DNA of 64,000 bases, taken from positions 32,001 through 96,000 of IMG/VR virus record IMGVR_UViG_3300047539_000078. One strand, written 5' to 3'. Both the position numbers and the translations under genes were made by a program. Below the pieces are notes generated by a model, which was given only the letters and a program-made list of their open reading frames with translations, did not search any database and had not been told where the DNA came from. Shown here in pieces: positions 15,584 to 56,711 of the stretch (its first letter is position 1; each line of letters opens with the position of its first letter). Source of the stretch: a virus. Taxonomy: Duplodnaviria; Caudoviricetes.

Positions 15584-18382
15584 CTAAATCTCGCACGACC
15601 CGCCAGCGCACGCCATTTCCTTCTGTGAGGTCGTGCCGTCCTCGATTTCGAATTCAGGCAAGCGGTTCCAATCTACGACCGGGAACGCGGCGACCAGCTT
15701 GTCGTATTCGGCCTTGGTGATTTCCGTGTTCGGAGCCTGTTTGTAGCAGTGCTCCGAGTACGGCAGGAACGAGATGCCGCCGATTTCGTCGAAGTTCTTG
15801 TAGACCCATGCACCGGCCTCCAGCCACTCATGCTCGCGGATGTAGACCGTGCACGACGGGTTGTGCTCCGTCCAATGGCGCTTGTAGGTCAGGTAGAGTT
15901 CGAGCTGCTGGATGGCGTTGCGGTCCTTGCGGAACACGCTCGTGTCCGGGGACTTCATCGGGAAGTAGAAGACGCAGACATCGTTCGGCTTGTTGATCTC
16001 CGGCTCCCAGGGCACTCCCATGGCCTTGAGGAAGTTGCTCACCGGGTCCTTGGCGTCGTTGCGGGTGGCACGGAGGACGAAGGGGCTGTGGCGGTCGTGG
16101 ATGCCGGGGGCACAGTCCACAAGTTGCGAGACCGTCCCGCTTGGCTTGTTGCAAGTTACGGCAGCGGCGGGGTTTATACCGAGCTTTTCGCTCCATTCGA
16201 TGTTGACCTCGATGCAGAACTGCCGCAATGAATCAAGGTTCTTTTCAAGGTCAGGTCCGTTTACGGATGTAAGTCTATTGTCTTCAATGCCGGTCAGGGA
16301 AACACCCAATAGGCGCTCTTCCTCGGCATTTTTCTTCCACTGCTTACGTAGATAGCGGAAATCGGTGAGCGTCGCCTGTAGGGTGCCCAGGATCGTCGCT
16401 AAACGTGCTTTACGGCGGATGTCCGCCCAGGTGTCGGTCGGTCGTACGACCACTTCCGTGAGGTTGCAGAAGCTCATGGAGCGGAGGAGAATCTCGCCGC
16501 ACGGGTTGCAGCCGAATTCGATGCCCTCCCACTTGCGGCGACCGGTCGCCTTTGCGGCCAGTTGGGCGGCATACCGGTTGAAGATGCCGCGTTCCCCGGA
16601 CTTGGACTCGTGGAGGGACAGCCATTCCTTCATGAACATCCCGATTTCAGGCTTTTCGGTGTAGACGGCGGAGTTGTTCGCCAGGCGACGCCACGGGGTG
16701 TTCTCTTCCTTGTACCATTCCCCGGTCTTGGCGTGGCGCATGCGCTCGTCGGACAGGTTGGAGAGGGAAATCATGGCGGAACGCCGGACGCCCCCGGACA
16801 CGACGACATCGGCGACCTTGCACATGAGGTCGTGGCATTCTAGGGAGGTTAGCTTGCGACCCGCAGCGCCCTGGAACAGGTGGACGGAGAACTTCATCAG
16901 GTCGTTGAGGGGTTCGGGACCGGATGCTCGACCGCCGAATGTCTTGAGCTTGGCACCCTTCTCTCGGATGGCGGACAAATCCCAGGTGGGGATCATGCCG
17001 GTGTAAAGCAGTGCGATGAGTTCCTTGAACGCGGTGGCCCAGCCGATTTTGGAATCGCGGACCTTGAGGACGACGCTGCTGTTGTGGAAACTTTCCGCGA
17101 CTACTGGAAGCTGATTGATATACTGGCGCTCGACGGAGAAACCGACCCCGGTCCCGCACATCGAAAGGTACATCGCTTCGTCGAACGCACGCTGGTCGTC
17201 GACGGCTAGATACGCGCAGTTCCCGGTCAAAATGCCATCCGCCAGCGTGAATGCGTGTGTTGCAGGTTCCATGACGCAGAAGACTTCCTCCGGTTCATCC
17301 AAGGGGGTTATGGCTTCAACCTTGAACCATCCGCTCTTTTGTATGGTAAGTCGTTGCAGGGGGTGCTTGCGGACTCCGTAAGGAGTCTCCATTGTAGGGT
17401 CGGTGTTTTTCCCGGTGATGATGTAACCGGCGAGGGGAGAGATTTCCTCAACAAATCTAATAGCAGCATCACTTTGCGAACTCAGGCTGGGTTGTTCCGG
17501 GCGCATGCATCCATCCGCCGCCAGATAACCTTCTAACCAGTTCTTGAGATAGTCGGCATCGGCATCAGTAGGCAGTTTTTTCCAGGTTTCGAAAAATCCT
17601 TTGTGAAATAGTACAACCGCGTCCCCTCCATAGGATGGGGGAAAGCAAACCGAGCAATGACCATAGGATTCAAATATATGCAGCCATTGTTTGTCTTTTT
17701 CCCCGCACAAGCGGACTTTCGCACGGCCACGGGTATCAATCGTACCGTCTCCGAATCCGAAACCAGCTATCCAAGCTTCAGCATTGAACACGACGGAATC
17801 CACGGGAGCACCTACAAAGCGCACTATGTCCCCAACTTGGAGGTCCGTCACTTCTCCGCGATTTTCCGTAAGCCAACGATGGTTAGGGGTTACGGTTATT
17901 TTTCTGCGGATATTCGTCCGAGAACGCCCATGCGGTTCACGTGTCGGCTTGAACGATACCTCCTGGACCGGTTGGATGCCGAAGGATGCAACATCAGCGT
18001 CGGACCACAACCCGTTTTTGGTTAAGACCTTGTGGGTTTGGCCGAACGCCTCAATAAAAGTCTTCACCCCGTCCTTGGTCAGGAATTTTTGGTGCCCCGC
18101 GAAGCAGTTGTATCCGGCAGCGTTGTCTTTCTCTAAAGCCTTGCCAGCCGTCATCATGGCACGCATCGACGGCATGACTTCCATGGCGATGATGGCCTGC
18201 TGGATTTCCTTCACCACCTTTTGCCGATCTTTTTCTGGAATGCGTCCCGAGAAGAAGTCCATGTAGCGTTGGATTGTTTCTTCCCCGTGTTCTCTTCGGT
18301 TTAGATCATCTCTCCATCTTGCGTAGCGTGTTTTGTGGATGAATGACGAATAAAATGCACCGACGTGATTTGAATTTGGCAT
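15584..18382 (-). CDS. nrdJ: Class II (B12-dependent) ribonucleotide reductase with an intein
   Basis: PSMRAM, GTGVGFS, ASGPEPL, GGVRRSA, NPCGEI, FCNLTE, KPSGTVSQL, EHNPS, C-terminal CAGGSC. Confidence 0.92.
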   Translation of the reverse strand: MPNSNHVGAFYSSFIHKTRYARWRDDLNRREHGEETIQRYMDFFSGRIPEKDRQKVVKEIQQAIIAMEVMPSMRAMMTAGKALEKDNAAGYNCFAGHQKFLTKDGVKTFIEAFGQTHKVLTKNGLWSDADVASFGIQPVQEVSFKPTREPHGRSRTNIRRKITVTPNHRWLTENRGEVTDLQVGDIVRFVGAPVDSVVFNAEAWIAGFGFGDGTIDTRGRAKVRLCGEKDKQWLHIFESYGHCSVCFPPSYGGDAVVLFHKGFFETWKKLPTDADADYLKNWLEGYLAADGCMRPEQPSLSSQSDAAIRFVEEISPLAGYIITGKNTDPTMETPYGVRKHPLQRLTIQKSGWFKVEAITPLDEPEEVFCVMEPATHAFTLADGILTGNCAYLAVDDQRAFDEAMYLSMCGTGVGFSVERQYINQLPVVAESFHNSSVVLKVRDSKIGWATAFKELIALLYTGMIPTWDLSAIREKGAKLKTFGGRASGPEPLNDLMKFSVHLFQGAAGRKLTSLECHDLMCKVADVVVSGGVRRSAMISLSNLSDERMRHAKTGEWYKEENTPWRRLANNSAVYTEKPEIGMFMKEWLSLHESKSGERGIFNRYAAQLAAKATGRRKWEGIEFGCNPCGEILLRSMSFCNLTEVVVRPTDTWADIRRKARLATILGTLQATLTDFRYLRKQWKKNAEEERLLGVSLTGIEDNRLTSVNGPDLEKNLDSLRQFCIEVNIEWSEKLGINPAAAVTCNKPSGTVSQLVDCAPGIHDRHSPFVLRATRNDAKDPVSNFLKAMGVPWEPEINKPNDVCVFYFPMKSPDTSVFRKDRNAIQQLELYLTYKRHWTEHNPSCTVYIREHEWLEAGAWVYKNFDEIGGISFLPYSEHCYKQAPNTEITKAEYDKLVAAFPVVDWNRLPEFEIEDGTTSQKEMACAGGSCEI
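17219..18106 (-). mobile_element. Intein (296 aa) with LAGLIDADG homing endonuclease in nrdJ
   Basis: Begins CFAGHQKFLT, block B TPNHRW, LAGLIDADG-like WIAGFGFGDG and WLEGYLAADG, ends ILTGN followed by Cys; lower GC than flanks. Confidence 0.9.
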
Positions 18383-19043: not shown

Positions 19044-19073
19044 TTGACATTGATTCAAGTTTCGCGGTATTAT
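19044..19073 (+). promoter_or_regulatory. Sigma70-type promoter P1
   Basis: TTGACA (19044) - 18 nt - TATTAT (19068). Confidence 0.7.
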
Positions 19074-19227: not shown

Positions 19228-19362
19228 ATGAACACTCTTCTCAAGACCGGACGAATTACCCGAGATACCTTCGACAACGTCGTCAGCTTCCAGGACGGCG
19301 TGGTCGTGACATCCGTACGCATTGACACGGATGGTGAACGAGGTATCGAGGTTGGCATCTAA
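19228..19362 (+). CDS. Candidate leader peptide (44 aa) of the tRNA operon
   Basis: MNTLLKTGRITRDTFDNVVSFQDGVVVTSVRIDTDGERGIEVGI; between P2 and the first tRNA. Confidence 0.55.
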   Translation: MNTLLKTGRITRDTFDNVVSFQDGVVVTSVRIDTDGERGIEVGI

Positions 19363-19430
19363 GCGTCCCCGCACCAAAGGGCGCTTTCAAGCGCCAACCC
19401 ACCGGAAGTAGAAGCAAAATCTAAACATAC

Positions 19431-19506
19431 AGTCGGTTAGCTCAGAGGCAAGAGCACTACGTTTACACCGTAGGGGTCGAGATTTCAAAATTCTCACCGA
19501 CTACCA
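19431..19506 (+). tRNA. tRNA-Val(TAC)
   Basis: Cloverleaf, CTACG-TTTACAC-CGTAG, encoded CCA. Confidence 0.9.
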
Positions 19507-19515
19507 AGGACATTT

Positions 19516-20091
19516 ATGAGTGAGAGCCGGGTTTGGGTGATTTCAGACACGCACTGGAATCGCAACAAGATCAAGACGTATTGCGTGCGGCCACCGGGGT
19601 ACACCGAGCGGAGCATCCGCCTGTGGAATAACACGGTCAAGCCGGAGGATATGGTCATCCATTTGGGCGACGTGGCAATCGGCGGATACGACCAGGTGAA
19701 GGAAATCTTGGACAGCCTGCCGGGAACCAAGGTCCTCGTCACGGGTAACCATGATGAGAGCAAGTCGCTGACCTGGTGGATGCGGAACGGTTTTGTGTTC
19801 GCTTGTGAGGGGTTGGCTTTTCGGAATATCTGGTTGTCGCACAGACCAGCGTACCGGTTGCCGCCAGGGTGCCACCTGAATGTGCACGGTCATCTGCACA
19901 TCAAGCGGGAACACTGGAAGGTGATGAAGCCCTTCAACAAGCTGTTCGCGTTGGAGTATACGGATTATCGACCGGTGGTTTTCGACAAGTTCGTACAGTC
20001 ACCGTCGATTCGGGATTTGAAGTGGGAAGACCACCGTCCCGTGGAGCACGACCGCTTCATCGAGGCGCGAGTGCATCCGATTCCGTGGTAA
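19516..20091 (+). CDS. Calcineurin-like metallophosphoesterase inside the tRNA array
   Basis: SDTH, LGD, GNHD, SH, HGHLH. Confidence 0.85.
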   Translation: MSESRVWVISDTHWNRNKIKTYCVRPPGYTERSIRLWNNTVKPEDMVIHLGDVAIGGYDQVKEILDSLPGTKVLVTGNHDESKSLTWWMRNGFVFACEGLAFRNIWLSHRPAYRLPPGCHLNVHGHLHIKREHWKVMKPFNKLFALEYTDYRPVVFDKFVQSPSIRDLKWEDHRPVEHDRFIEARVHPIPW

Positions 20092-20176
20092 CCAAATTCG
20101 TAGGCAGGTTGAAATCCCTGTCTCGCAAAGCTGTGGGAGCCTGTTTGCCGGTTATCCAAACAGGTTCTCTACATTT

Positions 20177-20251
20177 GCCTGTGTCGTCCAAGGGCTAGGA
20201 CGCACCCTCGATAGGGGTGTCATGGTGGTTCGAATCCATCCGCAGGTACCA
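20177..20251 (+). tRNA. tRNA-Ile(GAT) with atypical C33/G38
   Basis: Cloverleaf, CACCC-TCGATAG-GGGTG, TTCGAAT T-loop, CCA. Confidence 0.7.
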
Positions 20252-20325
20252 TTAGGCAGAGATTCTGGCCAGACGCCAGATGGTCACAGTTGACCATCGT
20301 TTAACTAAGACGTTGCCTCCTTTTT

Positions 20326-20532
20326 ATGGAACAGCATGATTTTGTTGATTGGGCGGGAGTCGCCAGAATGCTCTTTGCTGGCTGGAACCCGTATCCCGAC
20401 AAGGCTTATTGTGAGAAGGTCGGCTGGTGTGTGAATACGGACGGCACCGTGGATACTCCGGGCGGAATCCGTATCCCGACGCGGGACCTTTTTGAAGTAA
20501 AGGAACTTGAGGCTCTATACAAGTTGGGGTGA
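20326..20532 (+). CDS. Hypothetical protein
   Basis: 68 aa ORF between tRNAs. Confidence 0.5.
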   Translation: MEQHDFVDWAGVARMLFAGWNPYPDKAYCEKVGWCVNTDGTVDTPGGIRIPTRDLFEVKELEALYKLG

Positions 20533-20555
20533 TGTGGACTTTTGAACGGTATTAT

Positions 20556-20630
20556 AGGCGGTTAGCTCAGTGGTTAGAGCGCGTCTCTCACACGGACGAG
20601 GCTCGGGTTCGATTCCCGACCTGCCTACCA
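20556..20630 (+). tRNA. tRNA-Val(CAC)
   Basis: CGTCT-CTCACAC-GGACG, canonical D and T arms, CCA. Confidence 0.88.
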
Positions 20631-20653
20631 AGAAGTTGTGGTATCATAGTAGT

Positions 20654-21046
20654 ATGAAAGACACAACTGGCATTGGTTCCGTAACTGAAGCTATGGTTTT
20701 GGCGGCCTTGATTCGCCAAGGGAAACAGGTTTACATCCCCTTTAGTGGGGACTCACGCAGCGATTTGATCGTGGATGGGGAAAGCGGTCTCATTCGCATT
20801 CAATGTAAGACGGGTCGGCTGCGTAATGGTTGCGTTGAGTTTCGCAACTATAGCCAAACAAGTGCGGGACTTCGACCGTATCAAAAGAAAGATGTTGATG
20901 TTTTCGGTGTTTATTGTCCGGCCAACGGGAAAGTGTATGTGGTTCCCATTGAAGAGTGTGGCGGACAACTTACGTTGCTTCGAATAGAACCAACGAAGAA
21001 TAACTACAAGAAGGGCGTTCGATTTGCAGTAAAGTACGAAGTTTAG
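20654..21046 (+). mobile_element. Free-standing PD-(D/E)XK homing endonuclease (I-Ssp6803I-like family)
   Basis: G...E...AL...G..VYIPF.....DLIVD.....RIQCKT...DVFGVYCP...VYVVP; AT-richer than flanks; own -10 6 nt before ATG. Confidence 0.8.
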
Positions 21047-21048
21047 TT

Positions 21049-21122
21049 GCGGGCATCGTATAGTGGTAATACACATGCTTGCCAAGCATGAGATGTGAGT
21101 TCGATTCTCATTGCCCGCTCCA
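21049..21122 (+). tRNA. tRNA-Gly(GCC)
   Basis: CATGC-TTGCCAA-GCATG, U73, CCA. Confidence 0.92.
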
Positions 21123-21197
21123 TCGTGGAATTAAGTAGTGGAGGCGACTTGCAACGCAAGTTGAACCTGAGAAGCTATGAAGTCCACGTAAACTTAT

Positions 21198-21272
21198 GCG
21201 GTACTTTGTCGGTCTTGGAGTCTAGACACGGGACCGGACGCAGGCCCGTTGAATGACGGGGGGACCGCTCCA
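21198..21272 (+). ncRNA. tRNA-sized element with a Gly-like acceptor stem, no D arm
   Basis: GCGGT...ACCGC-T-CCA; long central stem CGGTCTTG/CGGGACCG; CCCGT-TGAATG-ACGGG arm. Confidence 0.45.
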
Positions 21273-21274
21273 GT

Positions 21275-21566
21275 TTCTGTCACCCGAAAGGGTCGCTCGG
21301 TGCGGAAAGGGGCTGACACCGCAAGTTACAAAAGCCCGACAGATTGATTTTGTGTGCACCGTGCGGACCCTCACGCATATCGCGAGATGGGAAAAGCACC
21401 GGGATTAAGGCCCGAGATTCGACAGCCGAGAGGTTCGGCGGTGAACGGCCTAAAAGCCCGAACCGCTTGGTGGCGAAAGCCAACACCGACTGGCGCACGC
21501 AACTAAATTTATAAAAGGAAGGGAGTGGCAACACCAACCCTTCGGCGGGGCACTTAAAAATGCCCT
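21275..21566 (+). ncRNA. Candidate large structured ncRNA, GNRA-rich
   Basis: Many helices with GAAA/GCGA/GCAA loops, a pseudoknot-compatible pairing, no credible ORF. Confidence 0.65.
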
Positions 21567-21568
21567 AT

Positions 21569-21643
21569 GCCCTGCTAGCTCAGTGGTTAGAGCGCAGCCA
21601 TGACACGGCTGAAACAGAGGTTCAATTCCTCTGCGGGGCACCA
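21569..21643 (+). tRNA. tRNA-Val(GAC)
   Basis: CAGCC-ATGACAC-GGCTG, CCA. Confidence 0.9.
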
Positions 21644-21646
21644 GAT

Positions 21647-21720
21647 GCGGGCGTCGTACAATGGCAGTATAGAAGCTTCCCAAGCTTCGGATGTGGGTTC
21701 GATTCCCATCGCCCGCTCCA
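21647..21720 (+). tRNA. tRNA-Gly(CCC)
   Basis: GAAGC-TTCCCAA-GCTTC, CCA. Confidence 0.92.
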
Positions 21721-21784
21721 GAAGTCCCGCCAGTCTTCGGACTGGCAATGTCTCGGACCCGTGGAATGAGGATAACGGGCAAAC

Positions 21785-21858
21785 GCGGGGTTGGCATATA
21801 GGTTGTGCACCAGCCTTCCAAGCTGGACAAACGGGTTCGAGTCCCGTACCCCGCTCCA
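21785..21858 (+). tRNA. tRNA-Gly(TCC)
   Basis: CCAGC-CTTCCAA-GCTGG, CCA. Confidence 0.92.
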
Positions 21859-21934
21859 GTGTTCTTGTCGTTGACTAGGATGCCGCCCATAAGAGGGTGG
21901 AGCATCCTTGGTGGCGTCAAGGACACTTAAAATT

Positions 21935-22010
21935 GGTGCTGTAGAGGAACGGCTAACTCGTCTCCCTGTCACGGAGAAGATAGTGGGTTCGACACCCATC
22001 AGCACCGCCA
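21935..22010 (+). tRNA. tRNA-Asp(GTC)
   Basis: TCTCC-CTGTCAC-GGAGA, G73, CCA. Confidence 0.92.
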
Positions 22011-22012
22011 GT

Positions 22013-22083
22013 GTTCCTGTAGTCTAACCAGGACGCCGCTCCTTTGGGCGGAGATGTGGGCTTGACGCCCGCCGGGGACACCA
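22013..22083 (+). pseudogene. Degenerate tRNA, anticodon undetermined
   Basis: Acceptor GTTCCTG/CGGGGAC-A-CCA; 6-nt loop CCTTTG; non-canonical T loop CTTGACG. Confidence 0.6.
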
Positions 22084-22132
22084 GCCGTGACGTAGACTGG
22101 GGAACGGGTTTCTACGGCCAGGTTCCCCTTAT

Positions 22133-22207
22133 GGCCCACTAGTGCAACGGCCAGCACACTTGGTTCTCAACCAAGAGACGCGGGTTCAACTCCCACGTGG
22201 GCTACCA
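22133..22207 (+). tRNA. tRNA-Glu(CTC)
   Basis: CTTGG-TTCTCAA-CCAAG, CCA. Confidence 0.85.
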
Positions 22208-22405
22208 GCTTAGCGTGCCCCCATCAACGGGGGTGAGCAGGTGCGTTATCACCTGAGGCGAAGCCGACCTTAACGACGGCATTAGTCCCCTGCTGAAATG
22301 CAGGCGTAGCTAGGCACGATTTCTGAGATAGTAGGAAAGAGTATCTTGCGGGCTGGCTGATGGGTTCCGCATCTAAGTTCTACCTACTGAGTTGCATCAG
22401 CATTT

Positions 22406-22479
22406 GGCCCGTTAGTGTATAGGTAACACATGAGCCTTTCAAGCTCATTAAGCGAGTTCGAGTCTCGCACGGGCTACCA
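22406..22479 (+). tRNA. tRNA-Glu(TTC)
   Basis: TGAGC-CTTTCAA-GCTCA, CCA. Confidence 0.9.
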
Positions 22480-23834: not shown

Positions 23835-24576
23835 GTGAAAAAACTACAGCTCATCTCCGACCTTCACTCTGAATTCTATCGGGGGAAGGAAGAACAGCTC
23901 ATCGACGGCCTGCCTATCGCCGAGAAGCTGGACTTCCTCGTGGTCGCGGGCGATACCGTCGTCTTCGGGAGCCAGCCCGAGTACATCGTGGATGTCATTT
24001 TCTCCAAGATTTCCCGGATGGCCGAACGACATCCTGTTGGTCACCGGCAATCACGAATACTACAACTCCTCCAAAGTATTCGCGGAGGATGCACTGTCCA
24101 AAGCCCTTCGAAACTACCGCAACATCACATGGCTGGACAACGAGGGCCTCATACTCAACGGCGTGCGCTTCTACGGCGGCACGATGTGGTATTCCGCCGG
24201 GGACGGGCTGAACCAAATCTACGAACATCACATCAACGATTACAGCTTGATCCGCGATTTCAATTGGGCGGAGAAGGAAAACGCCGTGTTCACCGCCAAC
24301 GCGCTGCGTTTCGTCGATTCGAGCACGGTCGTCATCTCGCATCACATGCCTCATCCGGCATGCATATCTCCGAAGTATCGAAATTCCAATATCAATCGGT
24401 TTTTTACGTCGGATCAGACGGAAGTCATCACTTCCAAGCGTCCCCGCCTGTGGTTTGCCGGTCATACGCATGACAGAAGCGATACAACCGTTGAGGACAC
24501 CAGAATCATAATAAACCCGCTAGGGTACCCGGGTGAGAACCCGGGGCCATATCCGCAGGTCATCCTGGAGGTGTGA
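23835..24576 (+). CDS. Calcineurin-like metallophosphoesterase (frameshift near 24030)
   Basis: SDLH and AGD in one frame; GNHEYY, SHHMP, GHTH, NPLGY in the next. Confidence 0.85.
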
Positions 24577-28845: not shown

Positions 28846-28905
28846 TGTTGAAAACACTTAGGTTAAACGGTGACCTTTTTGTTCCCGCCGTGGTATAATG
28901 CTGGT

Positions 28906-30654
28906 ATGGAAGCCACATCAAACTTGTTCCCGATAATCGGACAGGAAGAGACCCCAGCGGTCACGGGAACCTTCTATCAGGCTACCCAGCCCATCAAGCC
29001 GAGTATCCAGACCAACACCGACCCTGATATTCGCAAGCACTTCCCGTTCCCGACGATGCGGGACGCACAGGGGCAGGCGCTTGATTTGGTCGTTCGCTCC
29101 GCCCAAGAGAAGAAAAAGTTCACCCTGATCGAAGCTCCAACGGGCGTCGGCAAGTCCGGTATCGCAATAGCGACCGGCTCATGGGCGAAAACACAGCCGA
29201 TCACGCGGCCCCGCGACTCCCAAGGTTCCATCATTCTCTCAACGCAAAAGACTCTGACCGCACAGTACATGAAGGACTTCTCACAGGACGGTCTTGTTGA
29301 ACTCAAGGGTCGTGCAAACTACCAGTGCGCCACGCACGAAACCGATTGCGCTTCGGCGGCGGCGTTCCAGGACGAGAACGACAATTGCGCCAAGAATGGC
29401 GTCTGCCCCTACGCCAACGCCAAAGAGGTGTTCATGGGTTCCCCCGCAGGCGTGACTAACTTCTCCTACTTCCTAACAGAGACCATGTACGCGGGACGCC
29501 TGAAGCCCCGCAACTACCTCGTGCTCGATGAATGCCACAACGTCGAGAACCAGATTCTCGGATTTACCGACACAGAATTCACGAAGGAAAAAGCCGCAGA
29601 ACTCGGCATCACGCTCCCCATTTTCAAAGCGGGAGCCATCGGGAACACCGCCGCAGCCCTCAAGTGGTTCGAGGAAGTGGCCACCCCCAAGATGAACGAG
29701 TACATCGGCGACCTGGAAATGCAAATCGAGCAAGCGAAAAACGACGGAGAGCGCGAGGAAGCCGTGGAACTGGCGAAGCGCTTCCAGCGGTGGACGACGT
29801 TCAAGAAGCGCACGGACATGTTCCGTGAAACCGACCGCCCCGGAGACTGGATTGTTTACTCCGACGTGAACGAAAAGGGCTTCGGCACCAAGAACCTCAT
29901 CATCAAGCCTTTGACCGCCACGCTTTTCGCCGAAAGCATCATGTTCAAGAAGGCTGCGAACATCGTCATGATGTCCGCTACGATCCTGGACTTCAAGACG
30001 TTCATGCGCAACTTGGGAATCGACTCCTCGCAGGCGAACACGATGTCGATCCCGTCCGAGTTCCCCCTTGAGAATCGTCCGATATTCTTCAAGCCCGTGG
30101 GCAACATGTCCTCTAAAACCAAGAAGGATTCGTTGCCCCTGCTTGCGGCGTATACGGAGAAATTGCTTTCGCACCCTAAGTACGTGGGTGTCAAGGGCAT
30201 CATCCACACGCACAGCTACGATATCACGAAATACATGATGGAGTACCTTACATCGCGGGGCTTCGGCGACCGCCTGATTTCACACACGAACCTTCCCGGT
30301 AGCCGCGATGCAGCCGTCGCAAAGCACCTTGCGTCACCGCATGCCACGATTCTGGTCAGCCCGTCCATGACTGAGGGCCTAGACCTCAAGGAAGAACTGA
30401 GTCGGTTCCAGATCATCCTGAAAGTTCCGTACGCATACTTGGACCCGTACGTTAATGCCCGCATGGCCCGCGATTCCGCCTGGTACGCATGGCAGACGGC
30501 TCTCACACTTGTTCAGGCGACGGGACGCTCAGTGCGCTCTACGACCGACAAGGCGCACACTTGGATTTTGGACTCTGAATTTCAGAATTTCCTCCTCAGA
30601 AACGAGAGGATTTTCCCGAATTGGTGGCTAGACAGCATCCAATTTAAGGGGTAG
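28906..30654 (+). CDS. DinG/Rad3-family Fe-S SF2 helicase
   Basis: Q motif, EAPTGVGKS, LKGRANYQC plus Cys cluster, DECH, MSAT, EGLD, QATGRSVR. Confidence 0.9.
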   Translation: MEATSNLFPIIGQEETPAVTGTFYQATQPIKPSIQTNTDPDIRKHFPFPTMRDAQGQALDLVVRSAQEKKKFTLIEAPTGVGKSGIAIATGSWAKTQPITRPRDSQGSIILSTQKTLTAQYMKDFSQDGLVELKGRANYQCATHETDCASAAAFQDENDNCAKNGVCPYANAKEVFMGSPAGVTNFSYFLTETMYAGRLKPRNYLVLDECHNVENQILGFTDTEFTKEKAAELGITLPIFKAGAIGNTAAALKWFEEVATPKMNEYIGDLEMQIEQAKNDGEREEAVELAKRFQRWTTFKKRTDMFRETDRPGDWIVYSDVNEKGFGTKNLIIKPLTATLFAESIMFKKAANIVMMSATILDFKTFMRNLGIDSSQANTMSIPSEFPLENRPIFFKPVGNMSSKTKKDSLPLLAAYTEKLLSHPKYVGVKGIIHTHSYDITKYMMEYLTSRGFGDRLISHTNLPGSRDAAVAKHLASPHATILVSPSMTEGLDLKEELSRFQIILKVPYAYLDPYVNARMARDSAWYAWQTALTLVQATGRSVRSTTDKAHTWILDSEFQNFLLRNERIFPNWWLDSIQFKG

Positions 30655-41460: not shown

Positions 41461-42471
41461 ATGAACATAAAACAGCTCGATACCGACGAAGTGAACATCG
41501 TGTACACGACGGATTGGCATTTCTCCGACAAGCCGATAGGTCGCCGCCAGGACAATTATCGGAAAGCCCTCTTCAACAAACTAGAGTTCGTGAGAAAACT
41601 GACTCAGGAAGTCAATGGTATAGCGTTGTGCGGAGGCGATGTCTTCCATGTCAAGAGTCCCCGGAACGAAGCAAACAGCTTTGATCTTCTTGTTACACTT
41701 ATCCATGCTCTACGTCGATTCCCTACAGCGGGTGTTTGGGGCACAGTCGGCAATCACGATATTTCATTTGACCGTATGGACTCTCTATCGAGTCAGCCTC
41801 TCGGTCTGCTGATCGCTACGCACGTATACCGCGACATCAGCATTGAGCCCGTCACATTCGTGAACAAGGATGGCTCCATAGCCGTCCAAGTGGAATCGTT
41901 CCCCTATGAGGATGGCGAGAAAACCCTGGAGCGCCTTCTCGCATCCGGTCCCCGCTCCGGCACCACGGGAGTCACGAACTACCGTGTCGGCATCGTGCAC
42001 GCCTACGGCACACCCGGCGGGAAGGCCCAGATGTTCGCGGCCCGCAAGATAGGCTACGACGAAATCAAACACCTGGACTACGATCTGCTGCTTTGGGGTC
42101 ACGACCATTCCCGCCACGAGACTGAGACCGTCGGGAACATCACGCACATCAACCTCGGAAGCCTCGCCCGCGCAGCGTACGCCTACGACGAGGTTTCCCG
42201 CCCTGTCGTCGCTACCCTCTTGTCTTTTAGCCGAGAAGGTGTAGACTATGAGGAGCGTGAGATTCCGGTGACACCTATCGCGGCGGCGTTCGTTACGGCG
42301 GATAAGGGTGTGCAGCAAGTCGTCAAGACCGAAGAGGTTGAGGACTTTTTCACCTCCATGGACGATGTTGTAGGCGGAATCGAGTCAGGCGATCCGCGAG
42401 AGGTCATGGCGCAGCTTTGCGAGGGAGAACCGGTGCTTTTGAGTCGCACCTTGGAATTGTGCGGTCTGTAG
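41461..42471 (+). CDS. Mre11/SbcD-like nuclease
   Basis: TDWH, GGDVFH, GNHD, GHDH, NLGSLAR. Confidence 0.85.
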   Translation: MNIKQLDTDEVNIVYTTDWHFSDKPIGRRQDNYRKALFNKLEFVRKLTQEVNGIALCGGDVFHVKSPRNEANSFDLLVTLIHALRRFPTAGVWGTVGNHDISFDRMDSLSSQPLGLLIATHVYRDISIEPVTFVNKDGSIAVQVESFPYEDGEKTLERLLASGPRSGTTGVTNYRVGIVHAYGTPGGKAQMFAARKIGYDEIKHLDYDLLLWGHDHSRHETETVGNITHINLGSLARAAYAYDEVSRPVVATLLSFSREGVDYEEREIPVTPIAAAFVTADKGVQQVVKTEEVEDFFTSMDDVVGGIESGDPREVMAQLCEGEPVLLSRTLELCGL

Positions 42472-55199: not shown

Positions 55200-55474
55200 A
55201 ACAATACGTTTACCCAGTCACAATCGTCCTTGACCGGTATCAAGGCGTCTATTCTGGGGCACCGTGGACGGCTTGGAACGAGTACGCCGATGGCGTTCCA
55301 GACGCCATCGATGCGGATGATTGCTCTTGCGCGGAGTTTTGGGCGCGGGATGAGCACGGGCCGGTGGGACGCGGACTAACCCCGGACAGTGCGCTAGCAG
55401 ATTTGTATTGGCAACTGAATGAATTGAAGGACGATCAAGATGGAACCCCTTTACGAGATAATCCAAGCCGGTAG
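55193..55474 (+). CDS. Hypothetical phage protein
   Basis: YP.TIV.DRY.G.YSG..W.AWN...VGRG.TP..AL.DL pattern. Confidence 0.65.
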   Translation: MLEQYVYPVTIVLDRYQGVYSGAPWTAWNEYADGVPDAIDADDCSCAEFWARDEHGPVGRGLTPDSALADLYWQLNELKDDQDGTPLRDNPSR

Positions 55475-56711
55475 CGGACGCCATATCAAGGCGTGGAAGA
55501 AGGGCGTGAACTTTGAGCAGGAAGCCATCCAACAGCTCATTGCCGCCGCCCAGCTTTCAGTCGTTCACCCGTATGTCGCCGCAATGCCGGATTGCCACAA
55601 AGGCTACGGCAGTACAGTCGGTTCCGTCATCCCGACGAAGGACGCTATAATTCCAGCCGCGATAGGCGTTGACATCGGATGTGGGATGTGCTATGTCCAG
55701 ACTGATTTCGACCGCGACGACCTGCCGTCGGACCTCTCCGAAATGCGCCCCGCGCTGGAAAAGGCGATCCCCAACGGGGGACCAGGCGAGCTGGGTGCAT
55801 GGCCCGTCAACGTCCCTTCGCATATCCACACGGCATGGATGGATGACTTCGATTCGGAGTACGACGCCATCGGGAGCAAGTATCCCGACGTTATTTCCCC
55901 GTTCGCCCAGCGCCAGCTCGGCACCTTGGGGACTGGCAACCACTTCGTGGAACTCACGATTGAAAGCATCGGAAACAAGGTCGGGGTCTTGATCCACTCC
56001 GGCTCGCGGGGACTGGGCAACAAGATCGGCACCTACTTCACCGCGTTCGCTCGCCACTATTGCGAGGCGAACCACATAGGCTTGCCCGACCGCGACCTGG
56101 CGTACCTGCCACGGGGCGTAGAAGGTTTTGATGACTATCTGGCCGCCGTACGCTTTGCGCAGCGGTACGCAATGGCGAGCCGCACGATCATGGCGCGAGC
56201 GGCCTGCAATGTCCTCATGACTTTCACCGGGTACCGCAGTATCGTGTCTTCGATCCCCACGGTGCATTGCCACCACAACTACATGGTGGAAGAGGTCCAC
56301 AACGGGGAGAAGCTATTCATCACCCGCAAGGGTGCCGTCCGTGCGCAGGCGGGAGATTTGGGGATCATCCCGGGTTCCATGGGAGTCAAGACCTTCATCG
56401 TCGAGGGGTTGGGTTCCGAGGACAGCTTCACATCGTGCAGCCACGGCGCGGGCCGCACCATGTCCCGCACGGCTGCCAAGAAGGCTTTCACCGTCGAAGA
56501 CCATGTTTTGGCAACTGAAGGTGTGGAGTGCGACAAGACCGAGGACACCCTTGATGAAACGCCGGGAGCCTACAAGAACATCGACGACGTGATGGCGGCG
56601 CAGAGTGACCTCGTGCGCCCGCTTTACACCCTAAAGCAGTTCCTATGCGTCAAGGGGAAGAGCGAGGGGAAGCGCTGGGAGAAGAAAAAGAAGAAGGTGG
56701 CCGAGGCATGA
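55440..56711 (+). CDS. rtcB: RtcB RNA ligase
   Basis: MPDCH, GVDIGCG, LGTLGTGNHF, HSGSRG, HHN, RKGA, IPGSMG, SHGAGR, DETPGAYK. Confidence 0.95.
   Translation: MEPLYEIIQAGSGRHIKAWKKGVNFEQEAIQQLIAAAQLSVVHPYVAAMPDCHKGYGSTVGSVIPTKDAIIPAAIGVDIGCGMCYVQTDFDRDDLPSDLSEMRPALEKAIPNGGPGELGAWPVNVPSHIHTAWMDDFDSEYDAIGSKYPDVISPFAQRQLGTLGTGNHFVELTIESIGNKVGVLIHSGSRGLGNKIGTYFTAFARHYCEANHIGLPDRDLAYLPRGVEGFDDYLAAVRFAQRYAMASRTIMARAACNVLMTFTGYRSIVSSIPTVHCHHNYMVEEVHNGEKLFITRKGAVRAQAGDLGIIPGSMGVKTFIVEGLGSEDSFTSCSHGAGRTMSRTAAKKAFTVEDHVLATEGVECDKTEDTLDETPGAYKNIDDVMAAQSDLVRPLYTLKQFLCVKGKSEGKRWEKKKKKVAEA

Follow-up and report, generated by a model that had tools for sequence, protein, structure and literature searches.

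The presence of ten tRNA genes that almost exclusively read codons with a G in the first position (GNN codons) raises the question why a virus would group its tRNA genes by codon class. These genes form an array at positions 19431-22479 of a window of 64,000 nucleotides (nt), i.e., bases 32001-96000 of the single 142,018-bp virus contig IMGVR_UViG_3300047539_000078, and were all predicted on the plus strand by ARAGORN. The array probably represents one leader-gated tRNA regulon, namely the GNN block of a clade of large soil phages related to the Tunturiibacter phage Tunturi_5, and the sorting of its genes most likely reflects regulatory units and not the specificity of a nuclease. This explanation is based on a block that is conserved among related phages, leader open reading frames (ORFs) whose codons match the tRNA genes behind them, co-variation of leader and block, and the transcription terminators found in the relatives.

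Nine of the ten genes, encoding three tRNAs for valine, three for glycine, one for aspartate, and two for glutamate, possess a C at anticodon position 36 (C36). Indeed, ARAGORN returned exactly the ten anticodons named in an initial annotation of this locus, and the Rfam tRNA model retrieved these nine genes with default filters at 55-68 bits. The tenth gene, encoding tRNA-Ile (GAT), was found with this model at 45.7 bits after the filters had been relaxed. All ten scores (45.7-68.5 bits) exceeded the gathering score of RF00005 (29 bits), and CCA is encoded in each of the ten genes. No further tRNA genes were found on the whole 142,018-bp contig, so that the array is its sole tRNA cluster and the reported absence of a tRNA for alanine extends to the contig in its entirety. 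Similarly, no remnants of Ala or Phe genes were detected in the spacers of the array, either with Rfam (E ≤ 5) or in a sensitive blastn comparison to the arrays of two related phage sequences, G001 and L025. These counts cover the assembled part of the genome only, as CheckV estimated the completeness of the contig at 42% and terminal repeats were lacking. When ten distinct anticodons were drawn from the repertoire of a complete relative, the probability of finding at least nine with C36 was 1.3e-4; at the level of amino acid families, four out of five being GNN families, it was 0.005. The grouping was thus significant, and this, together with the inheritance of the block among the relatives described below, agrees with the initial view that it does not stem from random capture.

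The contig encodes a class II ribonucleotide reductase (RNR), helicases, a UvsX-like recombinase, the tRNA-splicing ligase RtcB, and virion proteins. Close relatives at the DNA level were not found among the deposited phages, only the tRNA genes themselves being matched. At the protein level, the nearest deposited phage, and the only cultured relative found, was Tunturi_5, a jumbo phage of 309 kb (helicase 44% identical), whose host is described as Tunturiibacter, an acidobacterium from tundra soil (Microbiome 2025, PMC11924767). The contig represents approximately 42% of a jumbo phage related to Tunturi_5. A complete uncultured phage, G001 (299,875 bp), was reached via the metallophosphoesterase ORF of the array; it shares 54 of 161 ORFs with the contig in a conserved order, and the array is located between the reductase and the helicase in both. 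In addition, near-identical strains occurred in five metagenomes of the Joint Genome Institute and in one sequencing run, all with the same ten tRNA genes, and differing in the presence or absence of a 266-nt segment.

An alignment of two helicases recovered 68 viral loci, the closest of which (helicase identity of 43-50%) possess a tRNA block that precedes the helicase gene by 5-19 kb. A block homologous to that of the window was present in eleven uncultured relatives, where it starts with Val-TAC behind a leader and has Glu at its 3' end. The order of RNR (15584-18382), array, and helicase (28870-30654) in the window was also found in G001 and G011, and in G007 except that no RNR match was found there. 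Furthermore, the best matches of the window tRNAs were mostly block tRNAs of the relatives that agreed in anticodon or amino acid (62-95% identity), and a Val-GAC/Gly junction with a 3-nt spacer is common to the window and G001. Because of the homologous block, its synteny, and these tRNA matches, the array can be regarded as an inherited block and not as a random capture.

Regarding its membership, the block of G003 to G011 and L053 comprises full isoacceptor sets for Val, Ala, Asp, Glu, and Gly, mostly supplemented with one outsider, Cys-GCA. In G001 and L025 (a contig of 7.8 kb), the outsiders are Ile-GAT and Phe-GAA, and the sole Ala gene near the block, Ala-TGC, is located at its 5' edge, upstream of the leader. 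The window block is characterised by the lack of Ala and Cys tRNAs and the presence of Ile-GAT; without an Ala tRNA, it does not cover all five GNN amino acids. The Ile-GAT gene of the window displays C33 instead of the near-universal U33 as well as a G1-U72 pair; its G001 counterpart has U33.

In seven relatives, every C36 tRNA found was located within one block (hypergeometric P of 1e-6 to 3e-11), and the membership of this block was the same in relatives with 43-58% G+C. Their other tRNA genes are sorted too, namely in blocks for Tyr and Leu (with or without Ser), for Pro, Met, and Phe, for Thr, Ile, and Gln, and for Arg, Lys, Asn, His, Gln, Trp, and Met. This bears out, for this clade, the suggestion of the initial annotation that tRNA operons may be sorted by codon box, the further clusters that it had proposed to look for being present in the relatives and grouped by amino acid. 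Mixed specificities at the locus, which had been put forward as an argument against such sorting, were absent from the close clade but present in Tunturi_5, where the GNN readers are distributed over two blocks, mixed with tRNAs for Lys, Arg, Met, Thr, Pro, and others, and where no tRNA gene occurs next to the helicase. Because of this mixing, C36 is not the rule in itself; that the tRNAs have C36 in common follows from which amino acids are grouped in one unit. The Leu and Pro blocks of the relatives are located 25-45 kb downstream of the GNN block. No tRNA genes were found near the contig homologues (approximately 76.7-77.7 kb and 127-128.5 kb) of the flanks of the Leu and Pro blocks of G007 and G011, indicating that the assembled part of the genome has lost, or never had, at least these two blocks.

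The array is preceded by a leader ORF (Table 1) that is rich in codons for the tRNAs behind it. Out of its 43 codons after the start, 23 are read by the array tRNAs (Val, Gly, Asp, Glu, and Ile), and this holds for 17 of the 22 codons at its end (P = 1.1e-5; approximately 0.003 when allowing for 240 windows). Moreover, this leader contains no Ala codon (P = 0.02), no Cys codon, and four Ile codons, which matches the content of the array. Five other strains encode the very same leader peptide; only L013 deviates at the nucleotide level, by three synonymous substitutions. A strong promoter-like site is located upstream of the leader (Table 1). In each of the 12 genomes, Val-TAC is preceded at a distance of 42-69 nt by the end of an ORF, 53-80% of whose last 30 codons are cognate; in G001, L025, and G008, this leader ORF lies between the Ala gene at the edge of the block and Val-TAC. 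Leader and block were found to vary together. Ala occurs in the leader of all nine genomes with an Ala tRNA downstream of it and in none of the three without (Fisher p = 0.0045), and Cys in all seven genomes with a Cys tRNA in the block and in none of the five without (Fisher p = 0.0013). That the leader has kept pace with the block content in the branch of the window argues that it is still in use.

Matching leaders were not confined to the GNN block. Indeed, leaders rich in Leu, Ser, and Tyr precede the Leu blocks of G001, G004, G005, G009, and G010; a Leu/Cys/Ser/Tyr leader precedes a Tunturi_5 block holding Leu, Cys, Tyr, and Ser tRNAs; a Met/Arg/Gln/His/Lys/Trp/Asn leader precedes a block of G004 with exactly those tRNAs; and Pro/Met/Phe and Thr/Ile/Gln leaders are located before some of the matching blocks. 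For an unbiased score, all frames delimited by stop codons within the 300 nt preceding each of 34 blocks were considered, and the best 15-residue window was retained per amino acid set. In 25 of the 34 blocks, among which all 12 GNN blocks (that of the window included), the block's own amino acid set scored higher than every set that clearly differed from it. Own sets scored 4.1 on average and mismatched sets 1.3 (Mann-Whitney p = 6e-15, related genomes being counted as independent). In the Tunturi_5 record (PP885688; L128), leader ORFs upstream of positions 231315 and 251837 match the tRNA blocks and are followed by a hairpin and a U-run; as listed, this record has no tRNA features annotated in that region.

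A way in which these leaders could act was suggested by the terminators of the relatives. In nine GNN blocks, the last leader codons can base-pair with a stretch overlapping the 5' arm of a G+C-rich hairpin; this hairpin is followed by a U-run and is located a few to approximately 25 nt before the first tRNA gene. Leaders of Leu, Arg, and Thr blocks were found to have a hairpin with a U-run behind them as well, and two of these blocks belong to Tunturi_5. In attenuators of the trp, his, thr, and ilv type, the position of the ribosome on the leader decides whether an antiterminator or a terminator is formed. By analogy with these systems, and judging from the anatomy of leaders and terminators, the leader of a tRNA block may be translated and may gate transcription. 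Upon fast reading of the leader codons, the ribosome would reach the stop codon and cover the antiterminator arm, the terminator would form, and the block would be switched off. When cognate tRNAs are scarce, slow reading would stall the ribosome further upstream, the antiterminator would form, and the tRNA block would be transcribed. The tRNA genes would then be sorted because each block is one feedback unit. The phage of the window would have inherited its block at the ancestral place, between RNR and helicase, with a leader composition that fits the changed content of the block.

The enterobacterial leader attenuators (thrL with Thr/Ile, ilvL with Ile/Leu/Val, hisL, trpL, pheL, and pheST) are among the closest known systems. 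They consist of a short ORF of sensed codons too, whereby one leader can sense several amino acids, and the 3' end of their leader competes with the 5' arm of a terminator before the genes, as in most relatives. They differ in that the regulated genes are tRNA genes here, so that the sensed product is the decoder, in that the leaders described here sample five to six amino acids, and in that the leader of the window has no terminator with a U-run. T-box riboswitches gate decoding genes by transcription attenuation in response to the state of tRNA as well, but they bind uncharged tRNA directly, without translation, and control synthetase and amino acid genes; none was found here by Rfam. The clusters of phage T5 and of T4-like Vibrio phages, in which many tRNA genes in one region are interspersed with small ORFs, homing-type endonucleases, and stable or tRNA-like RNAs, resemble the array in this interspersion; T5 and Vibrio phage D482 differ by the lack of GNN grouping, their C36 tRNAs being scattered in one mixed cluster. 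Tunturi_5 itself contains approximately 40 tRNA genes in blocks with isoacceptor runs, with leaders and terminators before at least two blocks. Its genome paper counts 43 tRNA genes, and no mention of sorting or leaders was found in its passages on tRNAs (PMC11924767). No reports of phage tRNA clusters sorted by GNN codons, or of tRNA operons controlled by leader peptides or attenuation, were retrieved in a literature search. Relative to published knowledge, leader-peptide attenuation acting on tRNA genes would be new.

Several observations weigh against a leader-gated regulon. Firstly, the leader of the window is preceded by a weak Shine-Dalgarno-like AGG only, and it has kept two Phe codons in the absence of a Phe tRNA in the block. 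Secondly, no plus-strand intrinsic terminator was found between this leader and the first tRNA gene. The composite hairpin at the end of the leader, for which a function may be presumed, has only three U residues after its inner stem and folds no better than shuffled sequences (z = -0.6), and no clear alternative pairing was seen. G001 and L025, the two nearest relatives, share a hairpin at the stop codon that lacks a U-run and has a C-rich tail, although the Leu block of G001 possesses a canonical terminator. Rho-dependent termination, or a stalled ribosome occluding a site adjacent to the stop codon, can be offered as mere guesses for the read-out in the branch of the window. Thirdly, the Fisher statistics on leader and block treat kin genomes as independent, the absence of Ala corresponding to one clade and that of Cys to two. 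Fourthly, no matching leader stood out for nine of the 34 blocks, mostly Pro blocks and some Thr blocks. Lastly, a leader-gated regulon does not account for G-first codons in particular sharing one unit, and the GNN readers of Tunturi_5 are not in one unit. The wider proposal that the whole clade, including Tunturi_5, splits its tRNA genes into codon-class regulons switched by leaders, with the lack of an intrinsic terminator in the branch of the window implying a second read-out, is put forward as one for which the scales are evenly balanced.

Alternatively, the array may be the product of pure descent, i.e., of tandem duplication of one or a few founder genes with anticodon changes at positions 34 and 35, the genes having simply remained together and the match with the leader being secondary or coincidental. 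Duplication with anticodon shifts, as proposed initially, stands within an amino acid, since Gly-GCC and Gly-CCC are 80% identical and thus represent a duplication with a change at position 34; it was not shown between amino acids, as the bodies of block tRNAs for different amino acids are no closer than the background of approximately 60%. The relatives frequently contain isoacceptor runs (Ala x3, Pro x3-4, and Leu x5), and the non-GNN members are only one base, at position 36, away from GNN members (Cys-GCA versus Gly-GCC, and Ile-GAT and Phe-GAA versus Val-GAC). The Phe-GAA of G001 and L025 resembles the adjacent Val-GAC (65-68%) no less than it does any other Phe tRNA. Shifts from Gly to Cys and from Val to Ile or Phe were considered as candidates and set aside, identities of 60-70% being equal to the background. 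The Cys tRNAs of the block, however, are orthologous to those in other blocks of G001 and Tunturi_5, which points to movement and not to an anticodon shift, and pure descent leaves unexplained why Ala and Cys in the leader track the block and why other blocks have matched leaders. Pure descent is thus unlikely as a full account of the array, but it may coexist with a leader-gated regulon as the origin of the block.

Compensation for codon usage on an incomplete contig is quite improbable as an explanation. In this case, the phage would carry tRNAs for its most used codons, and the 58% of the genome that is missing would contain further, unsorted tRNA genes. The contig being 42% complete leaves room for such genes, GNN codons make up 34% of its codons, the 14 codons read by the ten tRNAs represent approximately 30% of usage, the Ile codons ATC and ATT are among the most used, and the isoacceptors with C34 (CAC, CCC, and CTC) fit a G+C content of 56%. 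Yet Ala, the most used amino acid (8.35%), has no tRNA, nor do the top codons AAG, TTC, and AAC. In addition, the relatives keep the same membership over their range of G+C contents, and the contig has no tRNA gene in the surroundings ancestral to the Leu and Pro blocks. Codon supply is a plausible ultimate benefit, but it explains only part of the set within the phage.

A counter-defence set, in which the phage tRNAs replace host tRNAs cut by an anticodon nuclease or toxin and C36 mirrors the specificity of that enzyme, is highly improbable. GNN readers are the tRNAs not known to carry a bulky modification of purine 37, a trait by which a nuclease could recognise them; the completeness of the isoacceptor sets points to replacement and not to topping up; the window encodes RtcB and a metallophosphoesterase within the array; and Tunturi_5 has a tRNA nucleotidyltransferase and RtcB among its tRNA genes. 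The nuclease or toxin specificity considered initially nevertheless found no support, as the block of the relatives also accommodates Cys-GCA, Ile-GAT, or Phe-GAA and belongs to a set of blocks by which most or all amino acids are covered, the GNN readers of Tunturi_5 are mixed with other tRNAs, the other phosphoesterase homologues are not near tRNA genes, and no C36-specific nuclease turned up in the literature searched. We know of no such enzyme. RtcB and the phosphoesterase show that the phage invests in maintaining tRNAs but are uninformative on C36.

Table 1. Features of the tRNA array and its surroundings; positions refer to the window, except for the RNase P RNA loci, which refer to sequences of relatives.
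Feature	Position	Strand	Remarks
Sigma-70-like promoter candidate	19044-19073	+	TTGACA, 18 nt, TATTAT (11/12); consensus match only; upstream of leader
Leader ORF, 44 codons	19228-19362	+	Ends 68 nt before first tRNA gene
Composite hairpin	19350-19399	+	Last four leader codons and stop paired with downstream RNA; inner stem 19361-19386
tRNA-Val (TAC)	19431-19506	+	ARAGORN, Rfam; first gene 3' of leader, as in 11/11 relatives
Calcineurin-like metallophosphoesterase ORF	19516-20091	+	Within array; also embedded in G001 and L025 arrays
tRNA-Ile (GAT)	20177-20251	+	ARAGORN, relaxed Rfam; atypical; sole non-C36 member
68-codon ORF, no known family	20326-20532	+	In 266-nt segment 20255-20520
tRNA-Val (CAC)	20556-20630	+	ARAGORN, Rfam
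PD-(D/E)XK endonuclease ORF (PF11645)	20654-21046	+	Inside array
tRNA-Gly (GCC)	21049-21122	+	ARAGORN; 80% identity to Gly-CCC
Non-coding spacer, 446 nt	21123-21568	+	Predicted stable fold (z = -3.7); between Gly-GCC and Val-GAC
tRNA-Val (GAC)	21569-21643	+	ARAGORN
tRNA-Gly (CCC)	21647-21720	+	ARAGORN; 95% identity to L053 counterpart, 91% to that of G011
tRNA-Gly (TCC)	21785-21858	+	ARAGORN; 88% identity to G003
tRNA-Asp (GTC)	21935-22010	+	ARAGORN
tRNA-Glu (CTC)	22133-22207	+	ARAGORN; clear orthologue of G001 Glu-CTC, 73-74% identity
tRNA-Glu (TTC)	22406-22479	+	ARAGORN; closes block, as in relatives
RNase P RNA loci	L114 2617-2979; L139 1310-1660; L137 908-1230; L134; L053; L122; L130; L124		

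Several other elements are interspersed with the tRNA genes (Table 1). The metallophosphoesterase was considered as a general marker of tRNA arrays and rejected as such, since six homologue contexts (L018, L019, L026-L030) are without tRNA genes; a distant homologue (28% identity) is located in the tRNA array of L002. Just 3' of the array, a second metallophosphoesterase is split over the overlapping frames 23835-24473 and 23992-24576, which is one ORF of 314 codons in G001; this could be due to a frameshift, a sequencing error, or decay. The RtcB gene (55440-56711; PF01139, E = 4e-107) is located 33 kb 3' of the array; in Tunturi_5, RtcB is encoded inside a tRNA block. The 266-nt segment that contains the 68-codon ORF is present in this contig and in L012 and missing in the near-identical strains L013 and L015-L017. 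The endonuclease ORF is probably a selfish insert.

The 446-nt spacer had no Rfam match and no counterpart in any of the relatives. A stretch of 19 nt at 21535-21553, given as the last of the spacer, is a 79% repeat of the 3' end of Val-GAC. RNase P RNA (RF00010, bacterial class A) was found inside the GNN block of eight relatives (162-267 bits), and was absent from this contig and from the blocks of G001, G004, G007, and L025; G001 carries one at 41522-41892, near its Pro/Met block. The spacer as a degenerate RNase P RNA was rejected, as neither Rfam nor a hidden Markov model built from eight phage RNase P RNAs matched anything on the contig. Directly 3' of Asp-GTC, a 73-nt element (22011-22083) has a cloverleaf fold with a 9-bp acceptor stem, a T-like arm, a CCA end, and a 4-nt loop at the place of the anticodon loop, and is accepted by no tRNA finder. 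The element 3' of Gly-TCC (21859-21934) starts with the same ten bases and folds into one long hairpin. The tRNA region of T5 contains annotated tRNA-like stable RNAs, a possible parallel to these two elements. Lastly, suppressor-like tRNAs occur in the relatives: G009 and G010 (L135 and L136) have an amber one (anticodon CTA) in their Thr/Ile/Gln blocks, and G001 has TTA and TCA (L003, 1572-1642; L009, 574-647).

The usual explanation for tRNA genes in phages is codon usage or, lately, escape from tRNA-cleaving defences; to our knowledge, their regulation and placement are largely unexplored. If the array is a leader-gated regulon, phages of this clade would sense the decoding capacity of the infected cell per codon class and make tRNAs on demand. 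Leader-peptide attenuation would then extend from amino acid supply to the tRNA pool, thereby forming a feedback loop on decoding capacity. As the cultured phage Tunturi_5 (host Tunturiibacter psychrotolerans) possesses leaders and terminators, this idea is directly testable. In practice, it would provide a rule for the annotation of phage tRNA regions and for the prediction of which tRNAs a block holds.

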